From a virus (Duplodnaviria; Caudoviricetes): 30,952 bases of DNA. The position numbers and the translations under genes are program-made. The stretch covers positions 1 through 30,952 of the IMG/VR virus record IMGVR_UViG_3300030207_001297; one strand, written 5' to 3'. This document shows positions 8,294 through 25,338 of this stretch, in pieces; positions within the stretch are counted from its first letter, which is position 1; each line of letters begins with the position of its first letter. Below the pieces are notes generated by a model. It did no database searches. It was not told the DNA's origin and saw nothing but the letters and a program-made list of their open reading frames with translations.

Positions 8294-9621
8294 TATTTAT
8301 ATTATTATTCCCTTTGACTTTATTTGCAGAAGAATTAACAACCAATAACCTAATTACTAATGGCACATTTGATAATGGTACAAATGGCTGGACTTTATCA
8401 GGTAATGCAGTACGAATAAATGATTGTTGTCCAGGAGGACACGACCTAGAGTTTGGAGATAGTGGCAGTATTGAGCAATCTTTCAATCTTACATCTGATA
8501 CTATAACTCAAACCATGCTTGATAATGGCATTACTCTTAACTCTAGTGTTGAAGTACAAAATGGAGAGTGTGGTGTAGCACAATGTTGGGGTGGTCAAGG
8601 TGGTGCTGATAGCTTTACAATAAGATTACAAATAAGAGATAGCAATAATGAAATATTGGCAACAACTAGTCAAACTAGGACAAATGTTACAGGCATCAAT
8701 GGTAAAGATTTCCAAGATACTCTCTCGTATACAGGGATTAATAGTAACATTGGAAATATTCTTATTAGTGGGACTGATGCTAATGCTCCTGCTAGTCTTG
8801 GTGGTCCTAATGTAGACAACATATCGGTTACTATGACGTATGATGATACAGTTTTAACAGCTACACAGACAGAAGAACTACAAGAAATACAAGAAGTTAT
8901 ATCATTTATTGAAACAGAACCAATAGAGTTTGAAGAAATAGTTATACAAGAATTTATAGAAGAAAATTATGTTTTGGAATTTCCAACAATTATGGTAGAA
9001 TTATCTGAAGAAGAAAAATTTGTTGAGGAATCATTAGTATTAGAAATTTATGAAGAACCAAAGACCGAGCAGGAAGTCACAACAGAAATCGAAAGTGAAG
9101 AAATTGTCCTTGCAGAGGAGCAAGGAGGAACTGAAGAAGTATCTTCGAGAGAAGAAAGAAGTGTTGTTGAAGAACAACCCACATCTGCTAACAGCAATGA
9201 AGAAAAGGTTGAAACCGAAACAACAGGAAGCAACCAACCTACCGAAACCACAGAACAAAACACTGTGGCAGAAGATGTTAGAGTGGATACAGTCAAAGAT
9301 ATCACAAATCAAATAGAAAAAACTGTAGCTAATATAGATAAGCAATTAGTTTTAACACAACAAATAATTGCAAAGGTTATGCAGAACGATTCTATGATTG
9401 ACTCGTACTTATCTACTAATATGAATTTATTTAAAAACCAACCTACTATTAATGGAGGAGTTTATAATGAACAAAGACAATATGTTGATAATAGAGTGCT
9501 ATATGCTGAGAATCAAGATGTTTATAATGATGTGGTCTTTCGTTATCAAAAACAAATTGATGAAGCTATGGATGAAGTTATAAGAACACAAGAACATTTA
9601 AGGAGAATCCGTGGATATTAA
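8281..9621 (+). CDS. secreted protein: jelly-roll/carbohydrate-binding-like domain, acidic linker, C-terminal helix
   Basis: Signal peptide MERLIFILLFPLTLFA; NLITNGTFDNGTNGW is a CBM-like start; long Glu-rich linker. Confidence 0.6.
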   Translation: MERLIFILLFPLTLFAEELTTNNLITNGTFDNGTNGWTLSGNAVRINDCCPGGHDLEFGDSGSIEQSFNLTSDTITQTMLDNGITLNSSVEVQNGECGVAQCWGGQGGADSFTIRLQIRDSNNEILATTSQTRTNVTGINGKDFQDTLSYTGINSNIGNILISGTDANAPASLGGPNVDNISVTMTYDDTVLTATQTEELQEIQEVISFIETEPIEFEEIVIQEFIEENYVLEFPTIMVELSEEEKFVEESLVLEIYEEPKTEQEVTTEIESEEIVLAEEQGGTEEVSSREERSVVEEQPTSANSNEEKVETETTGSNQPTETTEQNTVAEDVRVDTVKDITNQIEKTVANIDKQLVLTQQIIAKVMQNDSMIDSYLSTNMNLFKNQPTINGGVYNEQRQYVDNRVLYAENQDVYNDVVFRYQKQIDEAMDEVIRTQEHLRRIRGY

Positions 9622-11504: not shown

Positions 11505-11860
11505 GAGCAAGACTTACGTTAATACATTGGGAAGATGCAATAACCCCCACTGATGGTTGGACAGATATATCTGAATTGGTTTCAGAACTAGCTGACTGTG
11601 TATCTGTAGGTTTTGTTGTAGAAGAAAATGACAAGACTATTACAATCGTATCTCATATATCAGGAGATGATGAAGGTACAGATATAGATGGTAGTTTAGT
11701 CCTGGATAAGAGTTGGATTAAATACAGACAAGATTTAATTATCAATCATACACCTGATAAAGATATTGCTGAACTGGTAGGCAAGTGGTTAGATGGTAGC
11801 TTGATTGTTAAGAAAGCAAAAGACAAACTTAAAAGGAAAACAAATGCCGAGAACAAGTGA
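11501..11860 (+). CDS. conserved phage hypothetical protein (W.DA...GW...SVGF type)
   Basis: ATG 11501 overlaps the previous stop; IHWEDA...CVSVGFVVEE motif. Confidence 0.6.
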   Translation: MRARLTLIHWEDAITPTDGWTDISELVSELADCVSVGFVVEENDKTITIVSHISGDDEGTDIDGSLVLDKSWIKYRQDLIINHTPDKDIAELVGKWLDGSLIVKKAKDKLKRKTNAENK

Positions 11861-12344
11861 TATAGAAAAAGAACAAAAGTTTATAGATTACTTTACCAAT
11901 GGAAGCACTGCATCAAATGCAACTGCGTCTGCCAAGAAAGCAGGGTACACAAAAAACCCTAGCCAACATGGTTATTGGTTAAGAAAAAAATATGAGAAAG
12001 AAATCAGAAGCATAAACGAAACCAAGATTACTTCAACATCTAGCTTGGCTATTGATGTGCTAAAAGATTTACTTATAAACTCTGAACAAGATTCAGTCAA
12101 ACTTAACACAGCTAAACTGTTATTAGAACTAGGTAATTACAGCTCACAAAACATTAACCTAACTGTTGATGATACTAAAAACAAAACAGACGAGGAGTTG
12201 ATTAAAGAACTCAACGAGTTGTTGCTTAAAGTTCCAGGGTTTAAAACTAAACTAGGTTTCAAGAACTCTGCACAGGATGTGGAGTCTATGGATAACACCG
12301 AATCAGACCCATCTAATCAAGCCGAGAAGCCGTTATCTCATTAA
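11844..12344 (+). CDS. terS: terminase small subunit-like protein
   Basis: ATG 11844 after AAGGA; EQKFIDYF...NATASAKKAGY HTH typical of TerS; downstream VKLNTAKLLLELG and TDEELIKEL motifs. Confidence 0.7.
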   Translation: MPRTSDIEKEQKFIDYFTNGSTASNATASAKKAGYTKNPSQHGYWLRKKYEKEIRSINETKITSTSSLAIDVLKDLLINSEQDSVKLNTAKLLLELGNYSSQNINLTVDDTKNKTDEELIKELNELLLKVPGFKTKLGFKNSAQDVESMDNTESDPSNQAEKPLSH

Positions 12345-13927: not shown

Positions 13928-14284
13928 TTATCCTCCATTCTGTTGGTAGAACCCTTTTTCTCTGCGTTCATTAGCACTCAGTGTTTGAAACAAACGCAAC
14001 TTGTGTTCTAAGTTATTTATTTTCCCTGTTAAAAGGGACTCTTGTTCTTTAGCTTCTGCAATCTTATCAACATACTTAATAACATCTTCATCCGTACTAG
14101 CTATAGAGTCTTTCATTGACTGTGTTGCTTTTAAATCAGCAGTATTAATCATAGCTAATGAGTACGCAATCTTGCGTTGCTCTGTATATTTATAAATATC
14201 AGCAGTAGCTTTTGCTCTTTTCTCCGTGAGCTTGTCGTGATAGTCCAATGCTTGTTCTAATTCTATATCAGGCAACTTGAACAT
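13928..14284 (-). CDS. coiled-coil protein (possible recombination mediator)
   Basis: All-helical 118 aa in the recombination module. Confidence 0.5.
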   Translation of the reverse strand: MFKLPDIELEQALDYHDKLTEKRAKATADIYKYTEQRKIAYSLAMINTADLKATQSMKDSIASTDEDVIKYVDKIAEAKEQESLLTGKINNLEHKLRLFQTLSANERREKGFYQQNGG

Positions 14285-14903
14285 CTAACTCTCCATCATA
14301 TATAAACTCTTTCTTGTGAGTTCTTTTTGTTTTAAAGTTCTTATCCATCTCTCCTTTAAGTAGATAGGTAGAGAACTCAAATATTTTTGGGAACATAAAG
14401 TCATGCACATACTTTTCATTCTTTGGTATATACATGATAGTTGAATTATTCATCTGATATACACAGACCCATGTCCCATCCTTACCTGTAAGATACTGTT
14501 GAAAATATATCTGAGGTAAATACCTATGAATATATTTTTGAGCATCATCTTGCACATAGTATGGAGCTTTTATTTCTACCAGGTGATTGTCCCCTATGTA
14601 TCCATCAGGAGTACATGACAATATTACTGAGTCATCATTGTTGCTCATGTAATCTGCCTGAGTATTTATCTGTTCTCCTAATAAATCTAAACCACAGTTA
14701 TGAACTAAGTCACCTGTATGTAGCATAACCTCTGCTATACCATACCTCTCACAATCTTTTCCGTGTTGTGTGTACTCTTGATTGACAGGTTTCTCATCTT
14801 TGTTTCCCACAAGTATTTCAAAATAGTTTTGCCTGGAGCAATAGGCATCCGTGCCTATCACCCTACTAATCATACTTGCTCTTAGGTTATAAACTTTGCC
14901 CAA
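14268..14903 (-). CDS. YqaJ/lambda-exonuclease family nuclease
   Basis: LRAS, HG...E, SCTPDG, VEIKAP and YLPQ motifs of the PD-(D/E)xK exonuclease. Confidence 0.85.
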   Translation of the reverse strand: MGKVYNLRASMISRVIGTDAYCSRQNYFEILVGNKDEKPVNQEYTQHGKDCERYGIAEVMLHTGDLVHNCGLDLLGEQINTQADYMSNNDDSVILSCTPDGYIGDNHLVEIKAPYYVQDDAQKYIHRYLPQIYFQQYLTGKDGTWVCVYQMNNSTIMYIPKNEKYVHDFMFPKIFEFSTYLLKGEMDKNFKTKRTHKKEFIYDGELDVQVA

Positions 14904-15390
14904 GTTCTTCAGCTCCTACGGATTTACTTTGAATTTTATCTTTAAGTTTTTCCAAGTCTCCGTTGATGTTGGTATTACTCTTTACAACCTTTGGTTTCTT
15001 ATTGGTTTTCTTTTCCTCGGTAGCTTTATTACCATCGTCATCTTCAGATGGTAGACCGAACAACGACTGCAACCCATATCTTTTTGCATAAGTTATACCT
15101 GACCCCATCTGATGTGGGTTATCTATATCTTTGCATTTGACTGGGACTTTACAATTAATAACATCATTACAATCTATATGTCTTATAATAGTTTCAACAT
15201 ATACATTTTGTTCTGAGTCATAATCTATCCTTTGCACAAATACTAAACCAAACTGACTAGCTTGATTGACAGCACTTATGACATCCTCCAGGGTAGAGTA
15301 GTCGCTGTTAAAGTGTGGATTGTTTCCACCCTTGTTTGCACTTACTTTGAGTTTATGAAACTCATTGAGTGCCATTAATAGTTTATTCAT
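14887..15390 (-). CDS. erf: ERF family single-strand annealing protein
   Basis: NPHFNSDYSTLEDV and MGSGITYAKRYGL...GL..EDDDGN signature. Confidence 0.92.
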   Translation of the reverse strand: MNKLLMALNEFHKLKVSANKGGNNPHFNSDYSTLEDVISAVNQASQFGLVFVQRIDYDSEQNVYVETIIRHIDCNDVINCKVPVKCKDIDNPHQMGSGITYAKRYGLQSLFGLPSEDDDGNKATEEKKTNKKPKVVKSNTNINGDLEKLKDKIQSKSVGAEELGQSL

Positions 15391-15599: not shown

Positions 15600-15619
15600 T
15601 CTATACCTCCTAATTGTTT

Positions 15620-15648
15620 AATATATACTAACGCATTATGTATGTCAA
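15620..15648 (-). promoter_or_regulatory. sigma70-type promoter for the recombination genes
   Basis: Minus strand TTGACA-17 nt-TATATT, followed by AGGAGG and ATG 15599. Confidence 0.7.
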
Positions 15649-15923
15649 TCATTAAGTAAATCATTTACTATCTCCAACAATTCTTCCTGCGTTCCATATT
15701 TTTCTTCCCACTTCTTTGTATTAGTATGCACCCCATCTCTGCCTTGGTGGTGTTCCCAACAGAGAGGTAGAGCATCCTTGCTCTTTTGACCCATCCCTAG
15801 ACCTTTAGTTCTAACATGATGTATACAAGGGTCGCTGTGTACTCCGTACTGTAATCGACACACGATACATCCCAGGGAAACTAATCTTTGATAGTATTCC
15901 CTAGTTTTTTTATTTGGCTTCAT
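15645..15923 (-). CDS. Ref/DUF968-like HNH Zn-binding nuclease
   Basis: LGCIVC...CIHHVR..GMGQK...LPLCWEHHQG signature. Confidence 0.75.
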   Translation of the reverse strand: MKPNKKTREYYQRLVSLGCIVCRLQYGVHSDPCIHHVRTKGLGMGQKSKDALPLCWEHHQGRDGVHTNTKKWEEKYGTQEELLEIVNDLLND

Positions 15924-16125
15924 GCAATATGTACTCTACAAAATAACCATCTTTACCTTTTTGCTCTACACTTTCGATGTTGTATCCATCTCTGTGTCTG
16001 AGGTTAAAGATAATTGCTGATAGTCTTGTTGCTCTGTACTTAGTAAATGCTGTCCAGGTTGTGATACTGCCATACTTAATCAAGTGTTCTAGTACCTTCC
16101 TAGCTTTACTTTTCTTCTTCGCCAT
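15910..16125 (-). CDS. winged-helix HTH protein
   Basis: VLEHL...GSIT...A...ATRLSAIIFNLR..GYNI motif; GGAGG RBS. Confidence 0.75.
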   Translation of the reverse strand: MAKKKSKARKVLEHLIKYGSITTWTAFTKYRATRLSAIIFNLRHRDGYNIESVEQKGKDGYFVEYILHEAK

Positions 16126-16543
16126 GTCTGACCTCCATTGTGTTTTTGTTCTTGAAGTTTTCCAAGAACTGTTTAATTTTAACTCTGTTTTCAGCTACCA
16201 CTTTCTCATCAATGACAACTGAGTCCTTGCTTATTTGTTTTCTAAATCTCTCCTCACGCACATACTTGTGTGATAACTCCTTACATATTTGTGCTACCTC
16301 TCTTAAATCAGGACACCACTCCTTGCTCTCCATCAATGGACTATTGACATTGAACAAGTCGTTATGAAGTACCTCATCAATGTAGGGTACTTGATTGAGT
16401 GTCCTTTTCCATACTTTAGCTGTCAATGATAAGTCTCCCTTACCATTGACTGCCGTGCCATAGGATGACTTAAACTTGTGTCCGAAAAAACTATTCATCA
16501 TTACAAAAAAGTTTGCAATGTCCTCGTCATTCATCATAATCAA
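16106..16543 (-). CDS. replication protein P/helicase-loader-like protein
   Basis: Directly downstream of the initiator; FGHKF.SSYG...W...EWCP.L.E pattern. Confidence 0.5.
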   Translation of the reverse strand: MIMMNDEDIANFFVMMNSFFGHKFKSSYGTAVNGKGDLSLTAKVWKRTLNQVPYIDEVLHNDLFNVNSPLMESKEWCPDLREVAQICKELSHKYVREERFRKQISKDSVVIDEKVVAENRVKIKQFLENFKNKNTMEVRHGEEEK

Positions 16544-17003
16544 CTACCTCTTTCCTTAATAACCTTATCCTATCAGCTTCTTTATCAGCAACAGATTTAT
16601 CTTTTGTATTATTATCTAATATATTCTTATCTATTCTAGGTGTAAGTTTGTTGTTAGATGCTGACAAGTTTCTTCGTACTGCTCTACTATAATTGTCCTG
16701 TATTTCTTTGAGTTTTGGTACTGTGATTTGAATACTTTTACCAAAGTCTTTGCTTACTAACAACTCGCTTTGCTCAAAGTTTGCCAATAGTTTTGTCAAA
16801 GTTCTTTGATTGATACCACCTAGCATTGATTTGAGGTAGCTTGTTTGAAACTCAACTGTTGGATTGTCTACATCCTCAACCCTCATTGATACCATCTCTA
16901 CTATGCAAAAGTAAAATCCGTATCCTTGAAGGAAGTTTGGCTCACAAGCTAACCTCAGTCTTGCTGATTGGTGGCTATCACTCTTATGTTTAAACCACTT
17001 CAT
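16527..17003 (-). CDS. phage replication initiator/replisome organizer-like protein
   Basis: MKWFKH.SD start, GYGFYFCIVE, and a C-terminal low-complexity IDKNILDNNTKDK tract typical of phage initiators. Confidence 0.6.
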   Translation of the reverse strand: MKWFKHKSDSHQSARLRLACEPNFLQGYGFYFCIVEMVSMRVEDVDNPTVEFQTSYLKSMLGGINQRTLTKLLANFEQSELLVSKDFGKSIQITVPKLKEIQDNYSRAVRRNLSASNNKLTPRIDKNILDNNTKDKSVADKEADRIRLLRKEVVDYDE

Positions 17004-17206
17004 TCCTGTTCTCTTTTCTGCTCTGCTAAAGACTCAACCATCATATCCCACCTTGTTTCAAGGTCGTCTAAATATTTGGTGGCTTCCTCTCCAGGCATAC
17101 CTGCATCCAATAGAAGTTTATAAGCATGACCTCTGTTATAATCTTCTCCTGAACTTTCAATTTCCTCCATCGCATCGAAGTACATTGTGTTGTATGTTCT
17201 ACTCAT
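17000..17206 (-). CDS. acidic hypothetical protein
   Basis: 68 aa with GGAGG RBS. Confidence 0.55.
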   Translation of the reverse strand: MSRTYNTMYFDAMEEIESSGEDYNRGHAYKLLLDAGMPGEEATKYLDDLETRWDMMVESLAEQKREQE

Positions 17207-17218
17207 TTACTTTTCCTC

Positions 17219-17518
17219 CTATTTTATTTCTCTCAATGTTTCCCATTTTCTAGCATCATCTAAATCTAAATCAATTTGATAATACTTTTTAGTAACTGGA
17301 CTCCAATAAGTTTCATAATGAATTAAATCTCCATCACTTAATTCAAGTTTTAGATGTGCTAAATCTTCTTTTTCTTGTTTTCTTAATTTCTTAACTTGTT
17401 CATCTGAGTAATCAAACTTATTCTCATATGTATAAGTCAAATCAATCTCGGAAAATATTACATTGTCATCATCATCTGTAATACATTTTCCACCTAATTT
17501 TTCTATCTTATCTTTCAT
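17219..17518 (-). CDS. hypothetical protein
   Basis: 99 aa with GAGG RBS. Confidence 0.55.
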   Translation of the reverse strand: MKDKIEKLGGKCITDDDDNVIFSEIDLTYTYENKFDYSDEQVKKLRKQEKEDLAHLKLELSDGDLIHYETYWSPVTKKYYQIDLDLDDARKWETLREIK

Positions 17519-17782
17519 TTACTTTTCCTCTTTAATTAATTTTTTAAGTGCCATGACATATGCGTCAGGGTCAGCTAAATCACAAATTAAATCTAACTCA
17601 TGATGTTTTTTATTTATGTGTGTTCTATCAGTGCCAACAGCATAAGGTCTCCCCAATGCCTTCATTCTTCCCCATGCCCATATCTGATTATTAAATGTGC
17701 CAAGTTTAGATTTTTCTTCTAAGATACCATCTTCGTCTAATAACGGCTCATCAGAGAACACTTCATTATATTTCTTGTTCAT
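17519..17782 (-). CDS. hypothetical protein
   Basis: 87 aa; no obvious SD; preceded by a structured element. Confidence 0.5.
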   Translation of the reverse strand: MNKKYNEVFSDEPLLDEDGILEEKSKLGTFNNQIWAWGRMKALGRPYAVGTDRTHINKKHHELDLICDLADPDAYVMALKKLIKEEK

Positions 17783-17793
17783 AATTCTTTTTA

Positions 17794-17856
17794 GGGTACA
17801 CTAGATAACACTAAGAGACAGTGAGAGTCCTTTCGGACTGGCTACCTAGTGTACCT
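17794..17856 (-). other. three-way-junction structured intergenic element
   Basis: Minus strand: outer stem GGTACACTAGGTAG/TTATCTAGTGTACC (2 G-U), inner AGTCC-GAAA-GGACT and CACT...AGTG hairpins. Confidence 0.6.
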
Positions 17857-17862
17857 GAGATA

Positions 17863-18159
17863 CTACATCTCACTCCTGATGTTTTTTAATACATCTGCTA
17901 TTAACATATCTAATTGCTTCCTACAATCATCTGCCGTTGCATCCTTCCATCCGTCTAAGAATTGGTCTGCATTGCTTGTCATCATAGATAACATCTTATC
18001 GTATGAGTCCGTAATGTTGTTTACCCTCTCGGACATTGGTATGTTTGCACTGATGTATGTATGCAATCTTACCTTTGCTACTGGGTCTTTTGGTAGACCA
18101 TTGAACATCAAGTGTTCAAGCATAGCATTTTTAAATTTAGTTTCTAATTTCTTGTCCAT
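17863..18159 (-). CDS. hypothetical protein
   Basis: 98 aa with ACATAGGAG leader like the repeat family. Confidence 0.6.
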   Translation of the reverse strand: MDKKLETKFKNAMLEHLMFNGLPKDPVAKVRLHTYISANIPMSERVNNITDSYDKMLSMMTSNADQFLDGWKDATADDCRKQLDMLIADVLKNIRSEM

Positions 18160-18166
18160 GTTTCTC

Positions 18167-18694
18167 CTATGTGTCTATGAACTTAGCTTGTCCACAGTTT
18201 TCCTGTATGTATCTTTTACGTAGTTCAGGGTTATCTCCCATTAATATCTTAACCAGTAAGGCATCATCACTACACTCTGATATCATCTTGTTTATTTTCT
18301 TAACACGACTATCCCACATTGTTCCTCTGATTATACACTTTTTCCTCTTGATATCAACAACTTCTAAAACTCTTTGTTTTATTAGATTGTTTACTTGCCT
18401 GAGTATCTGTCCGTCAGACTGGTCTTTTGGGTTGCCGTTCCTGTAATGTTTGAAACGTGGGAATACCATCTTCAAGTAAGTGTATAACTTACTCTTGTGG
18501 AAAACCCAATTCCTACCTTGTGGATGTTTCTCTCCACAAAAACAATCCGTGCCATACCCATCATATATAAATATTCTTAGTATCAAATCTTGTATATCTT
18601 CAGGTGTCTCAACCACACCATCAAAGAATGACAACAGATATTTTTTATTCTTTGTTAATCTTTTAATATTACACCTCCGTATACTCGTGGTCAT
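18167..18694 (-). CDS. hypothetical protein (start uncertain: ATG 18694 or ATT 18667)
   Basis: Long basic ORF within the operon. Confidence 0.55.
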   Translation of the reverse strand: MTTSIRRCNIKRLTKNKKYLLSFFDGVVETPEDIQDLILRIFIYDGYGTDCFCGEKHPQGRNWVFHKSKLYTYLKMVFPRFKHYRNGNPKDQSDGQILRQVNNLIKQRVLEVVDIKRKKCIIRGTMWDSRVKKINKMISECSDDALLVKILMGDNPELRKRYIQENCGQAKFIDT

Positions 18695-18872
18695 AACCTT
18701 GATAATCCTCGATTATTTCCCCTGTTACTGCATTTTCTCTATACACATCATAGTAGCCACAATCTTTGCAACCCATAATGTGTCCTATTTCATCATCACT
18801 AAATGTTTCTATGTAGGCATTGTATGATTTACATTCAGTACAACACCATCTTCCTGTACTACTACTCATCAT
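18669..18872 (-). CDS. Zn-ribbon protein
   Basis: CTEC...CKDCG; GGAGG RBS. Confidence 0.6.
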   Translation of the reverse strand: MMSSSTGRWCCTECKSYNAYIETFSDDEIGHIMGCKDCGYYDVYRENAVTGEIIEDYQGYDHEYTEV

Positions 18873-19068
18873 CTTCCTCCTGTATCTTTGGCTCGAAACC
18901 TAACTCAGACTTGATATACTTTTTTTCATCTTCGGTATAATGTTCTTCCCAAAAACTCTCGATATCAAATTCTTCCCATTGTTTAGTTCTTGTTTCTAAA
19001 AAATAAAGTTCTCCATTAATAACAGTTAGAGTTCCTTTATCTTTAATTTGTATAGATTTATTTGGCAT
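18862..19068 (-). CDS. acidic hypothetical protein
   Basis: 68 aa with GGAGG RBS. Confidence 0.55.
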   Translation of the reverse strand: MPNKSIQIKDKGTLTVINGELYFLETRTKQWEEFDIESFWEEHYTEDEKKYIKSELGFEPKIQEEDDE

Positions 19069-19086
19069 TTTATTTATTCCTCCGTT

Positions 19087-19281
19087 CTATATAATTATTA
19101 TCGTTATAATCAATATCAGTCCCACACTGCTTGACCAAAACAGAACAAACTCCTCATGTCCTGCTCTCCACATCTCGATTAAATATACAATCGTTGCTCC
19201 GATTAATGCAATCGTGCAAAACAATCCCATATAAAACCATATGTAAACTACCATATCTAATTCATCCATATTTGCTGTCAT
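19087..19281 (-). CDS. small two-TM membrane protein
   Basis: Two hydrophobic helices; AGGAGG RBS. Confidence 0.6.
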   Translation of the reverse strand: MTANMDELDMVVYIWFYMGLFCTIALIGATIVYLIEMWRAGHEEFVLFWSSSVGLILIITIIII

Positions 19282-19294
19282 AATTTTATTCCTC

Positions 19295-19456
19295 CTAACG
19301 TTTCAATTTATCTTTGATGTCCCAAGCCAACTGCATTTCACCAGAATAATTCTTATCTGTCTTAGTGCCATGACATTCTTCACACTCATCAATGTATAAA
19401 TCTAACCCTAGTTCAAGAATTTTTATTTCTACCTCTGTTAATTTAATTGTTTTCAT
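19295..19456 (-). CDS. 53 aa hypothetical protein (not in the ORF track)
   Basis: MKTIKLTEVEIKILELGLDLYIDECEECHGTKTDKNYSGEMQLAWDIKDKLKR*; AGGAGG RBS; fills the gap exactly. Confidence 0.65.
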   Translation of the reverse strand: MKTIKLTEVEIKILELGLDLYIDECEECHGTKTDKNYSGEMQLAWDIKDKLKR

Positions 19457-19475
19457 TTGCTATTCCTCCTATTTG

Positions 19476-19802
19476 TTATCTGTATAAATAAGTTTTACCC
19501 TCAAACTCAATCTGAGCATAATTAACTGCACAATCTCTTGCCCATTTATCCCAATCAACACAATAAGCTAGAGGGTTTTCTTCTCTCCTTAGATTTTCTA
19601 AGTATCCACAATCATATGCAAGTTCTTCGCAATACTCTGTGAAATCATCTTCATGTATAAAAATTATTCCACACTCCCAATCATCAGGATTACCACCATC
19701 ATTTACGACTTCATATTTAAGCTCCTTTATAGCTTTTATTCTGTCGCTATCTGTACTTTTATTATTCAATTCATCTTCTAAATCTCTGCTATCTAATATC
19801 AT
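19476..19802 (-). CDS. ArdA-like acidic antirestriction (DNA-mimic) protein
   Basis: Very acidic; FTEYCEELAYDCGY...YCVDWDKWARD resembles the ArdA C-terminal Y.D.E..ARD motif. Confidence 0.55.
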   Translation of the reverse strand: MILDSRDLEDELNNKSTDSDRIKAIKELKYEVVNDGGNPDDWECGIIFIHEDDFTEYCEELAYDCGYLENLRREENPLAYCVDWDKWARDCAVNYAQIEFEGKTYLYR

Positions 19803-19807
19803 AATTT

Positions 19808-19855
19808 TATTCCTCCTATTTGTTAGCTGTACCCTGGGAGACTAGCTCCCAGGAC
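19808..19855 (-). repeat. partial copy of the intergenic element (GC hairpin + RBS only)
   Basis: CCTGGGAG-ACTAG-CTCCCAGG, identical to the copy 5 hairpin core. Confidence 0.8.
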
Positions 19856-19865
19856 ATCACTGTAT

Positions 19866-20066
19866 TTATACCTCTTCATAACTGTCAGGATACTCAGGCT
19901 TGTGATTTATCCATGACCCTGCTACTGATACATTTACAATCGACTCTCCATGGTGATTATCATGTGCCTGTTTAATAGCATAACCCTCGGCTTGTTCCTG
20001 GGTTTCAGCTTTTACATAATATTCACTAGTAAATGTAGTATCTATTGTTACTTCAAAATATTTCAT
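19866..20066 (-). CDS. DpnD/PcfM-like small protein
   Basis: MKYFEVTI....EYYVKAETQEQAE pattern. Confidence 0.5.
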   Translation of the reverse strand: MKYFEVTIDTTFTSEYYVKAETQEQAEGYAIKQAHDNHHGESIVNVSVAGSWINHKPEYPDSYEEV

Positions 20067-20070
20067 AATT

Positions 20071-20175
20071 GTCTCCTATGTTGTTGAATTTCATAGCATT
20101 GTTGCTATGTATATGTACACCTGTGATGTACATATATATAACAACTACCTGACTACACTAGGTAGCCAGGTGTTG
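20071..20175 (-). repeat. intergenic triple-hairpin element, copy 1 (divergent)
   Basis: gtctcctatgttgttgaattt, catagca/tgctatg, tatatgtaca/tgtacatata, cctgactac/gtagccagg. Confidence 0.85.
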
Positions 20176-20185
20176 ATGTCATATA

Positions 20186-20467
20186 TTAACTTTCTTCTTT
20201 TGGTTCTATGCCGTACTTGTCATGCAAGATACCATCCACAATCTCCTCAAAATCAGACTCTTTAACGAAATCTTCTACATCTTCATAAGTTGTTATGTCG
20301 AAGTCAGACGGACAGAAATTGTCATGAGTAAGTACATCACCTCTGTTGATTTCTTCTTCAACGGCTGATTGTATATCCATATCAGCTTCAAGGTTTTTTA
20401 TCATTGTTCTCAACTCTTGCACTTGATTATATAATCCAAAAGTAAGTATGTTTAATATTGTTTTCAT
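20186..20467 (-). CDS. acidic hypothetical protein
   Basis: Start at ATG 20467 (MKTILN) after AGGAG; D/E-rich. Confidence 0.6.
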   Translation of the reverse strand: MKTILNILTFGLYNQVQELRTMIKNLEADMDIQSAVEEEINRGDVLTHDNFCPSDFDITTYEDVEDFVKESDFEEIVDGILHDKYGIEPKEES

Positions 20468-20470
20468 ATT

Positions 20471-20570
20471 GTCTCCTATGTTATTGATTTTCATGATGTT
20501 TTATCATGTATATATACACTCACGATGTATATATATATGATACCCAGGGAGACAAACTCCCTGGGATATC
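20471..20570 (-). repeat. intergenic triple-hairpin element, copy 2
   Basis: catgat/atcatg, tatatataca/tgtatatata, cccagggag/ctccctggg. Confidence 0.92.
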
Positions 20571-20576
20571 TTTTTG

Positions 20577-20765
20577 CTAAAGATTAACTTTCAAATTATC
20601 TATATCATCTCCAAACAATGTGACTTCTAATACTTCCGTTAAGTCTCCGTCATCATCCTTACCATAAATGGTAATTGTCCTAGAGTTGTAAGTATCCTCT
20701 TCATGAGGTTTACTAATACTAATTTTTTGGACATGGTGAGTTGATATTCTTGTAGAATTATACAT
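20577..20765 (-). CDS. small hypothetical protein
   Basis: 62 aa exactly between copies 2 and 3; AGGAG RBS. Confidence 0.6.
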   Translation of the reverse strand: MYNSTRISTHHVQKISISKPHEEDTYNSRTITIYGKDDDGDLTEVLEVTLFGDDIDNLKVNL

Positions 20766-20770
20766 AATTT

Positions 20771-20872
20771 TCTCCTATGTTATTGATTTTCATGATGTTT
20801 ATATCATGTATATATATACCTGATTGATACATATATATATGATATCCAGGGAGACAAGCTCCCTGGAATATC
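20771..20872 (-). repeat. intergenic triple-hairpin element, copy 3
   Basis: catgat/atcatg, tatatatata/tacatatata, ccagggag/ctccctgg. Confidence 0.92.
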
Positions 20873-20877
20873 TTTTG

Positions 20878-21777
20878 TTATTGCATTTCATCCAAGTAAT
20901 CCACTACTTGCTGTGCTTTTGTTGAAGCTGATATCAATGCTCCTGAGTTATCCTTCAATCTAGATATCCAACAGTTCAGATATTTTGCATGGTCAGGTCT
21001 TGGCTCATGGTCAAGTCCTAGCTCAATAGATAGCATTGCTGATGATATCTCAGCAACCAACTCCTCGTAAGCATACTCATTATCTTCAAATGATTTTGGA
21101 GCTTTCCCAAATCTATTCAATCTCTTTTCATGCCCAGTCCAGTGCGATAATTCATGTAGCTTAGTGCCATAATAATTACCAGTAGAACTTGCATCCAGGG
21201 TATCTATGAAGGAAGCCTTATAAGGCATCCCTATGAAGTCCTGATGTGGAGAATAAAAAGCATGGTCAAAGCCGTGCTTGATTGTAGCTCCTGTATTCTC
21301 AATGTATTTATCAATATCAGCATGAGATTTTACTTCAGATTTTTTTACAACTGGGTCTTTATATCTATAATCACAGGTTATCCAGTCCAGGTATTTTTTA
21401 GAAATGACCTGGTCTCCGTTCCATACATTATAATATCTAGTTATCCAGTATACACCTTCTAGTAAAATGTCTCCTGTATCCTCATCAACCTTCTTTTTCT
21501 CGGACTGTTTAAAGAATATGATTGGCTCAGATTTACCTGAAACCATGTATCCCTTATCATTCCACTGTTTAAAAGAAGCCCAGGTATTAGATGCAAAACC
21601 ACGGGATGCTTTAGCAAAGCCTAACAGCATTACATTTATACCACGGTATGCCTTCTTATTTAGAAGGTTAATAGGTGCACAAGTAGCTGTCCAACATTTG
21701 ACCCAGTTAGTGCCAACCTTGGACATACTATCAATTAGACCTGATACGATGTCATTGAGTTTATCTTTTAGTTTCAT
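20878..21777 (-). CDS. ardC: ArdC-like antirestriction protein (ssDNA-binding domain + zincin-like metallopeptidase)
   Basis: YRGIN..LL, WASFKQW, AFYSP..D.I.MP, HELSHWTGH..RLNR, YAYEELVAE, Y...W...L motifs. Confidence 0.88.
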   Translation of the reverse strand: MKLKDKLNDIVSGLIDSMSKVGTNWVKCWTATCAPINLLNKKAYRGINVMLLGFAKASRGFASNTWASFKQWNDKGYMVSGKSEPIIFFKQSEKKKVDEDTGDILLEGVYWITRYYNVWNGDQVISKKYLDWITCDYRYKDPVVKKSEVKSHADIDKYIENTGATIKHGFDHAFYSPHQDFIGMPYKASFIDTLDASSTGNYYGTKLHELSHWTGHEKRLNRFGKAPKSFEDNEYAYEELVAEISSAMLSIELGLDHEPRPDHAKYLNCWISRLKDNSGALISASTKAQQVVDYLDEMQ

Positions 21778-21781
21778 AATA

Positions 21782-21878
21782 GTCTCCTATGTTATTGATT
21801 TTCATGATGTTTATATCATGTATATATACACTTTCAATGTATATATATATGACATCCTGGGAGCTAATCTCCCAGGAT
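21782..21878 (-). repeat. intergenic triple-hairpin element, copy 4
   Basis: catgat/atcatg, tatatataca/tgtatatata, atcctgggag/ctcccaggat. Confidence 0.92.
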
Positions 21879-21897
21879 AATATACTGTTTGTCTAAT

Positions 21898-22068
21898 TTA
21901 TTCGTTTAACATTCTCTCGAACATAGCTAGATGAAAGCGATATTCACCAATAATGATATGAATATTATCATCTTTATCTGCTAAAACTTCAGGTCTTACA
22001 TTTTTTGCATACCAATCAAGTCTAGATTTACAGTATTTAATTTTCTTTTTTATTTCTTGTTTCGACAT
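21898..22068 (-). CDS. small hypothetical protein
   Basis: Start at ATG 22068 (MSKQEI) after AATAACATAGGAGA, a leader-only copy of the repeat. Confidence 0.6.
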   Translation of the reverse strand: MSKQEIKKKIKYCKSRLDWYAKNVRPEVLADKDDNIHIIIGEYRFHLAMFERMLNE

Positions 22069-22087
22069 TTTATTTTCTCCTATGTTA

Positions 22088-22435
22088 TTATGCAATTTCA
22101 TTTCCATGTGAGTCAGTCAATGGTTGCTCCAGTTCATGTGACAACCTTACAGCCGTTAAATCTACGGCTAACCATGTCATGTTATTCTCAAAAGTTGTAG
22201 CACTTTTGCATCTATTCAAAGTCTCCCACTCGAAAATATTTTCACCTGTCTGTTCAGCATAATCTGTGATTATCTCCCATATCAAGTCTTTATTTTCTTC
22301 ATAAAATTTACATGTATCATTGTAATAAATAAGCTCACTAACAGCTCCATTGATACAGCCGTGCATGGCTACATCATTGATAAAACCTTCTGATTCTTTT
22401 TCATTATCAAATAATAGTTCTTCAATTTTATTCAT
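22088..22435 (-). CDS. acidic protein, candidate Ocr-like DNA mimic
   Basis: Start at ATG 22435; HGC..G.VSELIYY.DT..FY...W motif; strongly acidic. Function inferred. Confidence 0.5.
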   Translation of the reverse strand: MNKIEELLFDNEKESEGFINDVAMHGCINGAVSELIYYNDTCKFYEENKDLIWEIITDYAEQTGENIFEWETLNRCKSATTFENNMTWLAVDLTAVRLSHELEQPLTDSHGNEIA

Positions 22436-22439
22436 ATAT

Positions 22440-22536
22440 CCTCCTATGTTGTTGATTTTCATGATGTTTTATCATGTATATACATACTCACTGAATATGT
22501 ATATATATGACATCCTGGGAGACTAGCTCCCAGGAT
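22440..22536 (-). repeat. intergenic triple-hairpin element, copy 5
   Basis: catgat/atcatg, tatatacata/tatgtatata, atcctgggag/ctcccaggat. Confidence 0.92.
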
Positions 22537-22545
22537 AACATAACA

Positions 22546-22806
22546 TTAATTAAACAAGTGATTCTCAGCATTAAAATCAAAAATCGCTTTGAACTCAATC
22601 ATATCAAATTCAAAAGTTAAGCCGTTAGACATAACGTCAAAACAATCTAACCAAGAATTATTATCAATGTCATTAGCACAATGATTAAGATATTCATTGA
22701 TGTCTTGCTCTAAGGCTCTAATAACTTTTGATTGTCTATGATTTAAGTCCATGATTATATTTCTGTAATCATTAAGAACTTGTTCAGTTATGTTATTGTA
22801 TTTCAT
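22546..22806 (-). CDS. acidic hypothetical protein, first gene of the early operon
   Basis: 86 aa between copies 5 and 6. Confidence 0.6.
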   Translation of the reverse strand: MKYNNITEQVLNDYRNIIMDLNHRQSKVIRALEQDINEYLNHCANDIDNNSWLDCFDVMSNGLTFEFDMIEFKAIFDFNAENHLFN

Positions 22807-22810
22807 AATA

Positions 22811-22940
22811 GTCTCCTATGTTGTTGATTTTCATGGTAAAAACCATGTATATATACACTCAATCGAATGTATATATATATGGTTTCAGGGAGAAACCCAT
22901 ACAACCATACTAAGATGATAAATGGCACAATCTCCCTGAA
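22811..22940 (-). repeat. intergenic triple-hairpin element, copy 6 (expanded loop)
   Basis: catggt/accatg, tatatataca/tgtatatata, ttcagggaga-37 nt-tctccctgaa. Confidence 0.88.
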
Positions 22941-23221
22941 TATAGGATATGAAAATAAAATAAACTTTTTTCGATAGTGGCTTAGTCAGTCCCAGCATAC
23001 GATATATCCAATAATATCCCTTCTACGACCCAGCTACTGTTGTATTTCATTCCAGTTCAGGAGAGGTAAGTTAGTGACTTTTACTCCCATAATGAATACA
23101 GGTCTTGATTAGTATTCTAACGGCTTCGTATTTTATCTAATCATCTCCGATTATAGCCTGACCCTGAGTCTCAAACTAGATACGATACTTGTAAAACATA
23201 TTTTTTCTAGCCTGTAATTGA

Positions 23222-23251
23222 ATTATATACATACTTTAATTCTTATGTCAA
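23222..23251 (-). promoter_or_regulatory. consensus sigma70 early promoter
   Basis: Minus strand TTGACA-18 nt-TATAAT. Confidence 0.8.
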
Positions 23252-23285
23252 ACACTATATCAAACAAACATCAAATTAATTTATT

Positions 23286-23746
23286 TGTACAAAAAATGAA
23301 CGATTTTTCTATGATAAAATCAATAACTTACAAGTACATTTAGAAAACAATATCTTCATAAAAATCAATGACTTACGGAGATAATATGTCAAATATTAGC
23401 AAAATACCATATGCTCCAAATTTGCCCCATTTTGACCATTTTATCCTGTCTGACATACAAAGTACCCTGAAACCTAATACCCTGTGAGAGTCCCATATAT
23501 ACCCTAAAACGCTTAGAACCATTCTAAAAATATTGTACAAAAAATGAACAATTTATACGGCTTATTCTTTTAGATTTCGCCGACCTCCGACAGTGTCATA
23601 TATAGATATATAAAGGGATACAATAAGGCTATTATTTTAGATATATATTATCCTGGATGATTAGATATGGATGTCCCTATGTCCACACCCACACTGTACA
23701 AAAAATGTACACTAATAATTGTATACAAAATGAACGATTTTATACG
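23286..23746 (+). repeat. four TGTACAAAAAATGAAC-like direct repeats
   Basis: Copies start at 23286, 23534, 23695 and 23720. Confidence 0.8.
23318..23375 (+). promoter_or_regulatory. two IHF-consensus sites
   Basis: AATCAATAACTTA (23318-23330) and AATCAATGACTTA (23363-23375) match WATCAANNNNTTR. Confidence 0.55.
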
Positions 23747-23898: not shown

Positions 23899-23913
23899 TT
23901 GAGGTGGATTACT

Positions 23914-25338
23914 ATGTCTATTGAATTACAACGCATACAAGAGATAACCAATACTCTTGAAAAACGGCAACAAGAAAACAAACTAAACTATTACGAACCC
24001 TATAAGTTTCAAAAGAGATTTCATGAATCATCTTCAGAAGCCAACCAAAGATTACTTATGGCAGCTAATAGGGTGGGTAAGTCCTATGTGGGTGCTATGG
24101 AAATGGCTATACATTTGACAGGAGAATACCCTGAATGGTGGGAAGGTAGGAAGTTTGATAAGCCAATTAAGGCATGGGTATGTGGTGCGAGTAATGAAAC
24201 TACAAGGGACATATGCCAAAAAGAATTATTTGGGCAACCTGATAATCCAAGAGATAAGGGAAAAGGGAGTATCCCTAAACACCTAATTGGTGAGACCACA
24301 AGGAAACCTGGTGTACCAAATGCTCATTCTTCTGTTCTAGTCAAGCATATATCAGGTGGGTGGTCTAGGGTTGCCTTTAAAGCATACGAAATGGGTGCTG
24401 AAAAATTTATGGGGGAGAGTATAGATTTGATATGGTTGGATGAAGAACCACCACAGGATATCTACTCTCAATGTATTACAAGGACATTAGATAGAAAGGG
24501 TATGGTTTATTTAACCTTTACACCTGAGTCAGGGATGACCGAAGTGGTACAAAATTTTACGAATGATTTACGACCTGGACAAGCATTGATAACTGCTGGT
24601 TGGGAAGATGCAGACCATTTAACTAAGGATATGAAAGAACAAATCCTAGCTGCTCTACCACCACATGAAAGAGATATGCGTTCCAAGGGGATACCAATGA
24701 TTGGTAGTGGTTTAGTTTTTCCTGTCTCAGAGGACAGCTTGACCTGTGAACCCTTCGTGATTCCACCCCACTTCTCACGCATCGCAGGTCTCGATTTTGG
24801 CTACGACCATCCTACAGCAGTAGTATGGGTAGCATGGGATAGAGATGATGATATCGTCTATATCTATGATTGTTACAAGATGGCTAAACAAACTCCTGAT
24901 TATCATGCGTCTCATATAAACGAGAGAGAAGGTAGTCATTATATCCCTATATCATTCCCACATGATGGCTACCAGCATGACAAAGGAAGTGGTATTACAT
25001 TGGCAGAACAATATCGTCATGCCCATGTCAATATGCTTCCATTTCATTTTGAAAACCCACCAGCACTAGGTGAAAAGAAAGGAAACCTAAGTGTAGAAAC
25101 AGGAATCATGGATATGCTAACACGCATGGAACAAGGGAGATTTAAAGTATTTAATACTATGTATGATTGGTTTGAGGAGTTCAGATTATACCATCGTAAA
25201 GATGGGAAGATAGTAAAAATAAAAGATGACCTTATGTCTGCAACAAGATATGCAGTTATGAGTTTAAGACATTCAACAACAGAAACATCTAGGTGGAATA
25301 GTAAAGGTAGACTAGGACCTGATGTCGCAATAGTTTAG
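23914..25338 (+). CDS. terL: terminase large subunit (P22 gp2-like)
   Basis: ATG 23914 after GAGGTG; Walker A MAANRVGKS, Walker B LIWLDEE, LTFTP, nuclease GLDFG..HPTA and DDLMSATRYA. Confidence 0.95.
   Translation: MSIELQRIQEITNTLEKRQQENKLNYYEPYKFQKRFHESSSEANQRLLMAANRVGKSYVGAMEMAIHLTGEYPEWWEGRKFDKPIKAWVCGASNETTRDICQKELFGQPDNPRDKGKGSIPKHLIGETTRKPGVPNAHSSVLVKHISGGWSRVAFKAYEMGAEKFMGESIDLIWLDEEPPQDIYSQCITRTLDRKGMVYLTFTPESGMTEVVQNFTNDLRPGQALITAGWEDADHLTKDMKEQILAALPPHERDMRSKGIPMIGSGLVFPVSEDSLTCEPFVIPPHFSRIAGLDFGYDHPTAVVWVAWDRDDDIVYIYDCYKMAKQTPDYHASHINEREGSHYIPISFPHDGYQHDKGSGITLAEQYRHAHVNMLPFHFENPPALGEKKGNLSVETGIMDMLTRMEQGRFKVFNTMYDWFEEFRLYHRKDGKIVKIKDDLMSATRYAVMSLRHSTTETSRWNSKGRLGPDVAIV

Follow-up and report, generated by a model that had tools for sequence, protein, structure and literature searches.

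A covarying intergenic repeat in the early operon of a marine phage is a probable RNase III processing signal and a site of gene-cassette exchange

The 30,952-nucleotide stretch of DNA analysed here (the window; IMG/VR record IMGVR_UViG_3300030207_001297) is a complete virus record that encodes SU10-type portal and capsid genes, and the sequencing runs containing it are labelled marine or seawater metagenomes. Between a TerS-like gene and TerL it carries a minus-strand early/replication operon headed by an array of intergenic repeats, and we conclude that this repeat probably directs host RNase III to process one early mRNA into separate products, predicted to refold, and that gene cassettes are gained, lost and moved at it. 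A first-pass annotation of the same DNA had described the repeat as three hairpins, H3, H2 and H1 in mRNA order, followed by a linker and a start codon. Six full copies and two partial ones (H3 only and linker only) lie on the minus strand where that annotation had placed them (Table 1). Copies 1–5 fill stop-to-start gaps of 109–121 nt, and ahead of the first gene lies copy 6, also as it had proposed, and the linker pattern AAWTCAAYAACATAGGAG has six matches on the minus strand, none on the plus strand and none in a reversed control.

Pattern scans for the repeat yielded 21 viral-contig stretches and 41 metagenome-contig stretches. Ten poorly folding loci, taken as pattern false positives (L086, L088, L093, L095, L096, L102, L110, L112, L115 and L128), were removed before counting; four of these, L110, L112, L115 and L128, scored at most 36 bits with a model of the repeat (R1). 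The parser returned 156 copies, of which 59 were distinct and were aligned (alignment A2). R1 recovered the same copies together with diverged ones in L067–L069, L075, L097, L108, L134 and L135, and matches from two further scans were confined to the same phage group, restricting the repeat family to part of one marine phage group. Among 50,697 phage records, a class I copy found no match and a class II copy (classes defined below) found chance matches only. No Rfam family reached its gathering score (best 25 bits against a 100-bit cut-off), leaving the repeat outside the Rfam families, as the first-pass annotation had supposed. The weak Rfam matches were mostly to miRNA models fitting a hairpin of 19–20 bp, longer than H2 as first drawn, which was a clue to a second fold.

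Within the 59-copy alignment, 98% of cells in H2 and H1 are paired, and two-sided change occurs at 9 of 11 H2 pairs and 2 of 5 H1 pairs (11/16 overall). The covariation score was reached by 0 of 500 shuffles, a count that is not a probability because the copies are related; slid controls gave 17–50%. The earlier claim that the stems are conserved by compensatory change thus holds in the larger set. A distant sub-clade retains an 11-bp stem, one mismatch and a lower stem. The three-hairpin picture stands in part: H1 and H2 covary, but H2 extends through the 5′ arm of H1, and H3 is not part of the core.

This extension gives the repeat two competing folds. The 5′ arm of H1 (Y) has two exclusive partners, the 3′ arm of H1 (Z) and the flank 5′ of H2 (X), and pairing of X with Y extends H2 at its base into a helix of 16–20 bp with one conserved mismatch (58/59 copies). 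X–Y pairing contributes 4 bp in all 59 copies, two of these pairs being compensatory (UA/CG and CG/UA), and the H2 register had been fixed without using them. The position opposite the C of CAU, with which H1 begins, is unpaired in 58 of the 59 (A-C in 47, C-C in 11). Predicted energies of the two folds are nearly equal (mean difference 0.27 kcal/mol), the long fold being lower in 33/59 copies. For a transcript ending before Z the long fold is predicted in 59/59 copies, and for a product starting at the C of CAU that C is predicted to be paired, again in 59/59.

The long fold was compared with the rules for E. coli RNase III, which may not be the enzyme of the phage host. As given in the available part of Pertzev and Nicholson (PMC1540722), these call for A-U or U-A at positions 2 and 4 of the proximal box, UA/UG in the distal box and a length of at least 11 bp; enrichment of U-G in the distal box extends to B. 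subtilis in the portion of Taggart et al. (PMC11780869) available. Pair numbering was set on the T7 R1.1 sequence (counting from the 3′ cut, pair 5 A-U, 6 G-C, 11 U-G and 12 U-A), in agreement with the accessible text of PMC1540722, and nine registers were compared, register 0 placing the 3′ cut immediately before the C of CAU. In register 0, A-U or U-A pairs occupy proximal-box positions 2 and 4 and the lower (mirror) position 2 in 59/59 copies, against 0–42 in the other eight registers. From the predicted 3′ cut the upper stem runs for 11–14 bp, with the mismatch in 58/59 and the four lower pairs in 59/59. Pair 11 is U-G in 20 copies, G-U in 25, U-A in 10, another pair in 4 and A-U in none, a wobble in 45/59. 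Pairs 9–13 of T7 R1.1 are all matched, in the same register, in six copies, including the type of window copy 6. With this shared geometry, the earlier view that the repeat fits no known kind of element, in which T7 early RNase III sites had been set aside as an inexact analogy, is not supported.

An in vivo E. coli matrix (Altuvia et al., PMC6212723, Table S4; threshold -25.5, corresponding to 5% false positives in the part of the source available) placed 40/59 copies at or above threshold in register 0 and 41/59 in register +1. With a symmetrised matrix, register 0 was best in 45/59 copies over 24 positions and in 55/59 over the core. Order shuffles gave p<0.05 for 42/59 copies at register 0 versus 0/59 at +1 and at -1 (mean z 1.9 versus 0.3 and 0.0). 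Judged from sequence, the agreement of the long fold with RNase III rules is good, short of proof. A 3′ cut directly before H1 means that the released mRNA would begin with a blunt hairpin. It is very improbable that a different nuclease (RNase E or G, Mini-III or a phage protein) reads and cuts the same structure: the A-rich single strand after H1 and the many early open reading frames (ORFs) without a family would suit such an enzyme, but the fit of the register points specifically to the rules of RNase III, and no such nuclease was found among the 45 window ORFs scanned.

The copies fall into two classes, which differ beside the predicted 5′ cut and in H3. Seventeen of the 59 (class II) are without a strong H3; they have a GC-rich H2 tip and start directly after the upstream stop codon. 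All 17 carry a mismatch within pairs 1–5, next to the predicted 5′ scissile bond (pair 2 or 4), versus none of the 42 class I copies, and an H3 of -15 kcal/mol or stronger (to -24) is found in 29/42 class I and 0/17 class II copies. The other 13 class I copies are the first of their arrays, with no gene upstream and a long-loop H3 partly beyond the folding window. Loops or bulges can restrict RNase III to one strand, leaving a 3′ hairpin (PMC1540722), and mismatches can likewise limit cutting to one strand (Nicholson's review, PMC3867540), according to the available parts of both papers. On the simplest reading, a single 3′ hairpin is required on the upstream mRNA: H3 if H2 is excised, or H2 itself if the 3′ strand alone is cut.

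Near-equal energies also suit an RNA that is never cut, in which the long helix is displaced by H1 through branch migration and serves as a timer, a pause or an insulator (a roadblock to RNase E, or translation restart). RNAalifold chooses H2 plus H1, Z forms one pair more than X, and hairpins alone can shield mRNA segments, as the accessible part of PMC3997798 describes. We consider this unlikely, since it leaves unexplained the fixed 11–14 bp upper stem, the wobble at pair 11, the T7 R1.1 pairs and the link between the extra mismatch and the loss of H3. The Shine–Dalgarno sequence (SD), moreover, lies outside both folds, and its predicted openness shifts only from 0.52 to 0.69 on cutting.

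RNase III processing would act on a transcript from a single upstream start. The only 12/12 sigma70-type site in the window precedes the array (Table 1), and TTGACA-led sites scoring 10–12/12 lie 399–466 nt upstream in 7/20 related loci (L087, L114, L082, L089, L103, L109 and L075), several of the others being too short or lower-scoring. No promoter was found inside the repeats, where the best sites score 8/12 in the six window copies and 9/12 across 21 loci. The first-pass annotation was therefore right that they hold no conserved -35/-10, whereas its self-contained expression units are not independent transcription units.

We propose that host RNA polymerase starts at this promoter (23251) and that X, H2 and Y would fold first during transcription, through the covarying pairs described above, into the 16–20 bp one-mismatch helix. 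By E. coli rules, RNase III would then make cuts staggered by 2 nt, with the C of CAU as the first base after the 3′ cut. The freed Y could pair with Z to form H1, giving the downstream mRNA a base-paired 5′ end that is predicted to resist 5′-end-dependent decay, with an open A-rich linker leading from H1 to the SD. Two precedents, each from the available part of its source, are that RNase E prefers 5′-monophosphorylated, single-stranded ends (PMC3997798) and that S. aureus cspA mRNA is stabilised by a 5′-terminal hairpin after an RNase III cut (PMC3386247). A hairpin would remain at the 3′ end of the upstream mRNA, namely H3 in class I, where a clean duplex is probably cut on both strands, and the GC-rich H2 itself in class II, where there is no H3 and the extra mismatch next to the 5′ scissile bond probably leads to a one-strand cut; the association of the mismatch with the lack of H3 is observed, and single-strand cutting is our suggested cause. 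The pieces of the split early mRNA would carry one gene or a few. Homologous recombination, likely by the phage's ERF and YqaJ proteins, would swap cassettes without an integrase because the copies are near-identical.

A fuller version of this proposal, possible but doubtful, treats the repeat as a modular cut-and-refold joint. A strand-swap switch would expose an RNase III site in the nascent RNA and the blunt hairpin would seal the new 5′ end; the extra mismatch would set single versus double cleavage, and hence the need for a 3′ hairpin; and the same joint would be the crossover site, through which any gene could be inserted and have a stable mRNA of its own, making a post-transcriptional, integrase-free cassette system.

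Exchange at the repeat is recorded in the relatives. Cassette content and order vary widely among them, and breakpoints fall inside the repeat, in keeping with the proposal of the first-pass annotation that it is a recombination handle: L092, L111 and L113/L114 show lost or moved cassettes with hybrid repeats at those points. L111 and L113 are without the 62-aa gene behind ArdC and have a copy 3/copy 2 hybrid instead, and L092 is without two cassettes and has a copy 3/copy 1 hybrid. In L113/L114 the 62-aa family stands ahead of ArdC and DUF7222 is absent, and L111 fuses the class II core of the L082 clade to a window-type linker. H3 moves with the preceding gene and the linker with the following gene, and the crossover points differ between hybrids. 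Assembly chimeras were rejected for the L092 hybrid, whose parent copies share just 12 nt, and for L113/L114, where the moved cassette region is only 85% identical to that of the window and the shared stretch has a private variant; the L111 hybrid, with 30 nt shared, is compatible with a chimera when taken alone. In four DNA contig sets the region was tiled to near 100% with no excised-circle joints; the contigs break at each repeat, so that cassette order is not proven and circles are not excluded.

No integrase was found among the 45 window ORFs scanned, as the first-pass annotation had noted. One is dispensable in principle because the window encodes ERF and YqaJ, and, from what is established of phage annealing systems, these genes are the likely means of exchange.

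Two further patterns were seen in the same cassettes. The DUF7222 gene ends in ~30 nt (LTDSHGNEI; window 22070–22130; also L081, L082, L105 and L111) that are nearly invariant between clades whose TerL is 75% identical, and cassette junctions lie directly behind this stretch, a second crossover patch. Phages that are otherwise close have divergent ArdC alleles at one and the same cassette position (L103 5836–6744 and L075 3360–4265; L090 1600–2520 and L097 1720–2634), which suggests whole-gene replacement.

An element acting at the DNA level, a cruciform or single-stranded hairpin with a site like that for integration host factor (IHF) and functioning as a specialised promoter or in site-specific recombination, would account for crossovers inside the repeat and for a central A-C that would be G-T on the other strand, and 26/59 copies have a linker that fits the IHF consensus WATCAANNNNTTR. 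We regard it as quite improbable, because that consensus occurs in 0/6 window copies, the six matches in the window being at chance level (mean 4.6), because no internal -35/-10 boxes, attC core pair or integrase were found, and because crossover points differ among hybrids. The first-pass annotation had allowed for structured RNA or single-stranded DNA: the structured single strand stands, whereas a single-stranded DNA role is unsupported in a double-stranded DNA tailed phage.

Several observations weigh against RNase III processing or narrow what can be drawn from its fit. Pair 11 is G-U in 25/59 copies, and G-U at this pair cuts E. coli cleavage 50-fold. With the raw matrix the best register is +1 in 20 copies and 0 in 18, a tie that leaves the exact cut uncertain by one base. 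Between the cuts lie two pairs, most often A-U or U-A, where E. coli prefers G-C, and the shortest stems, if counted from the 5′ cut, have 9 bp and fall below the 11-bp minimum in the accessible portion of PMC1540722. The proximal-box rules are easy to satisfy for an AU-rich stem, the fit was sought over nine registers, and the copies are related to one another. Just three Y types carry the three-way covariation, hence few independent events, and class II may be one lineage, making its association with the mismatch one strong case and not 17 events. Two diverged copies outside the 59, L097:1352 and L108:1188, break pair 5; L134:4996 has no mismatch, and the first copy of the L067 sub-clade is without H1. 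An R1 copy was found in only 4 of the 55 TerL-relative loci searched (80 were fetched). The earlier argument that G-U pairs identify the minus strand proved weak: distinct non-Watson–Crick pair types number nine G-U, four A-C and five others, the central A-C would be G-U on the plus strand, and the antisense folds as stably as the sense strand in 4/6 window copies. Genes further down, without the repeat, also vary between relatives, indicating that the repeat channels exchange and is not required for it.

RNase III processing at intergenic hairpins is well known in phages. The early sites R0.3, R0.5, R1, R1.1 and R1.3 of T7 are, like these repeats, hairpins between genes of one early operon transcribed by the host (transcription that is putative here), including hairpins ahead of an anti-restriction gene. 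Upper-stem pairs 11 and 12 are U-G then U-A in T7 R1.1, a combination shared by some of the copies (pair 11 is U-G in 20/59), and both systems have an A-rich linker before the SD. The T7 sites have an asymmetric internal loop in place of the 1x1 mismatch and no separate H3, and the T7 gaps share only 6–17 nt, compared with up to 46 nt among the repeats. Folding of T7's five gaps, in a single genome, revealed no covarying competitor hairpin. In SP82 and SPO1, early RNase III sites are hairpins between small early host-takeover genes; unlike the array, most SPO1 gaps have their own promoter-like site, and they share no sequence with this repeat family. R1 found no match in T7 or SPO1.

For exchange, the closest relatives in kind are the promoter–stem-loop repeats (PeSLs) of RB49 and phi1, which in the accessible part of PMC2839356 are, as here, ~100-bp intergenic repeats running from the stop codon to the SD and ATG, where homologous exchange without an integrase leaves chimeric repeats and adds or removes ORFans. 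Each PeSL has a strong sigma70 promoter and a terminator, whereas the repeats here have no promoter, and that part of the paper mentions RNase III nowhere. A PeSL-like terminator or attenuator kept mainly as homology for shuffling is highly improbable for our repeat: H3 is terminator-like on the minus strand in copy 1 and on the plus strand in copies 2 and 3 (5 found, 1.5 expected) and hybrid repeats exist, but H3 is absent in 17 copies, homology alone selects no compensatory pairs, and termination would silence downstream genes because there is no internal promoter. The cspA 5′ untranslated region (available part of PMC3386247) is a single chromosomal leader and not a repeated intergenic module, a 3′-end protector or a crossover site. 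CUP (conserved upstream) repeats and single-stranded DNA promoters of plasmid leading regions, from the portion of PMC6289460 available, have a promoter in the repeat, a regulator site and DNA entering single-stranded, unlike these repeats, which have no internal promoter and belong to a double-stranded DNA tailed phage with terminase and portal. The paired RYYYAAC/GTTRRRY cores of integron attC sites were not found, a single core-like word occurring in 1/6 copies. The literature searched, in which subscription papers were thinly covered, held nothing relevant on a repeat of this kind. The RNA role is thus already known in kind from the T7 sites and the exchange from PeSLs; the apparent novelty lies in a covarying strand swap setting a blunt hairpin at the predicted cut, together with the trade-off between mismatch and H3.

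If RNase III processing is confirmed, one promoter would yield a separately protected mRNA for each early gene, and genes could be reshuffled with expression undisturbed. The class I and class II designs would offer a natural test of why RNase III cleaves a single strand in some substrates and both in others, and the module would serve as a compact insulating part for synthetic operons.

Table 1 Repeat copies, intervening genes and related features of the window, in the order of minus-strand transcription
Feature	Position	Strand	Details
Sigma70-type promoter	23222..23251	-	TTGACA-18-TATAAT; sole 12/12 site; ~415 nt upstream of copy 6
Copy 6 (first of the array)	22807..22940	-	Long-loop H3 22886-22940, H2 22848-22877, H1 22832-22847, linker and SD; predicted 3′ cut 22848/22847
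86-aa ORF	22546..22806	-	No family
Copy 5	22436..22545	-	H3, H2 22477-22505, H1 22460-22476, linker and SD; predicted cut before 22476
115-aa DUF7222 protein	22088..22435	-	PF23864, E 3e-22
Partial copy	22069..22090	-	Linker and SD only
56-aa ORF	21898..22068	-	No family; absent in L081, L111
Copy 4	21778..21897	-	H3, H2 21821-21847, H1 21803-21820, linker and SD; predicted cut before 21820
ArdC anti-restriction protein, 299 aa	20878..21777	-	PF08401 E 2e-19, PF18818 E 3e-39, phrog_7245
Copy 3	20766..20877	-	H3 20845-20867, H2 20809-20837, H1 20791-20808; predicted cut before 20808
62-aa ORF, family F6	20577..20765	-	Absent in L111, L092; upstream of ArdC in L113/L114
Copy 2	20468..20576	-	H3 20543-20565, H2 20509-20535, H1 20492-20508; predicted cut before 20508
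93-aa ORF, family F5	20186..20467	-	Absent in L092
Copy 1	20067..20185	-	H3 20147-20171, H2 20110-20136, H1 20092-20109; predicted cut before 20109
66-aa ORF	19866..20066	-	No family
Partial copy	19803..19865	-	H3 only (19831-19856), then SD
108-aa ORF	19476..19802	-	Weak ArdA C-terminal lead: Pfam E 0.0085, below cut-off; atlas 0.86
ERF single-stranded DNA-annealing protein and YqaJ exonuclease	14268..15390	-	Putative recombination pair

The first-pass annotation had called the genes between the copies anti-defence genes. This is firm for ArdC; the 108-aa ORF has a weak ArdA lead, the DUF7222 protein matches a family with no link to anti-defence in sequence, and the rest have no family. An anti-defence array, shown for ArdC alone, is plausible by position. 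PADLOC returned a single weak match. The idea that DUF7222 may be an Ocr-like mimic found no support in BLASTP, PDB sequence and atlas comparisons, which gave no sequence link to T7 Ocr. Micro-ORFs spanning the repeats (family F1) were taken as read-through of repeat sequence. A T run follows H3 of copies 2 and 3 on the plus strand (window 20543–20580 and 20845–20880) and could terminate antisense transcription.

TerL has its best cultured match, at 59.5% identity, in a Pelagibacter phage, with Vibrio phages at 58–59%, and a genome scan for the host gave two distant matches only. The TerS-like gene (11805–12344) and TerL (23899–25338) are separated by the entire inverted 11.5-kb early/replication block. 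Between the promoter and copy 6, the leader (22945–23215, minus strand, ~275 nt) has a predicted folding energy of -52.7 kcal/mol and contains no convincing ORF. On the TerL side, a non-coding control region (23280–23745, plus strand), possibly an origin or packaging site, contains TTGTACAAAAAATGAAC repeats (at least three) as well as two words, at 23318 and 23363, that match the IHF consensus exactly and are similar to the repeat linker; comparable words occur in L075 and L153. The first element in L067 (minus strand near 8906), L075, L153, L154 and L156 has an 11-bp stem, a G-G mismatch and a 6-bp lower stem with no H1, and in L067, L075 and L156 its arm and loop contain the reverse complement of the IHF-like word. 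Several early genes without the hairpin repeat (window 15600–19830, minus strand) are preceded by short SD-bearing ATAGGAGGA-type repeats, and the gene content of this part also differs among relatives.

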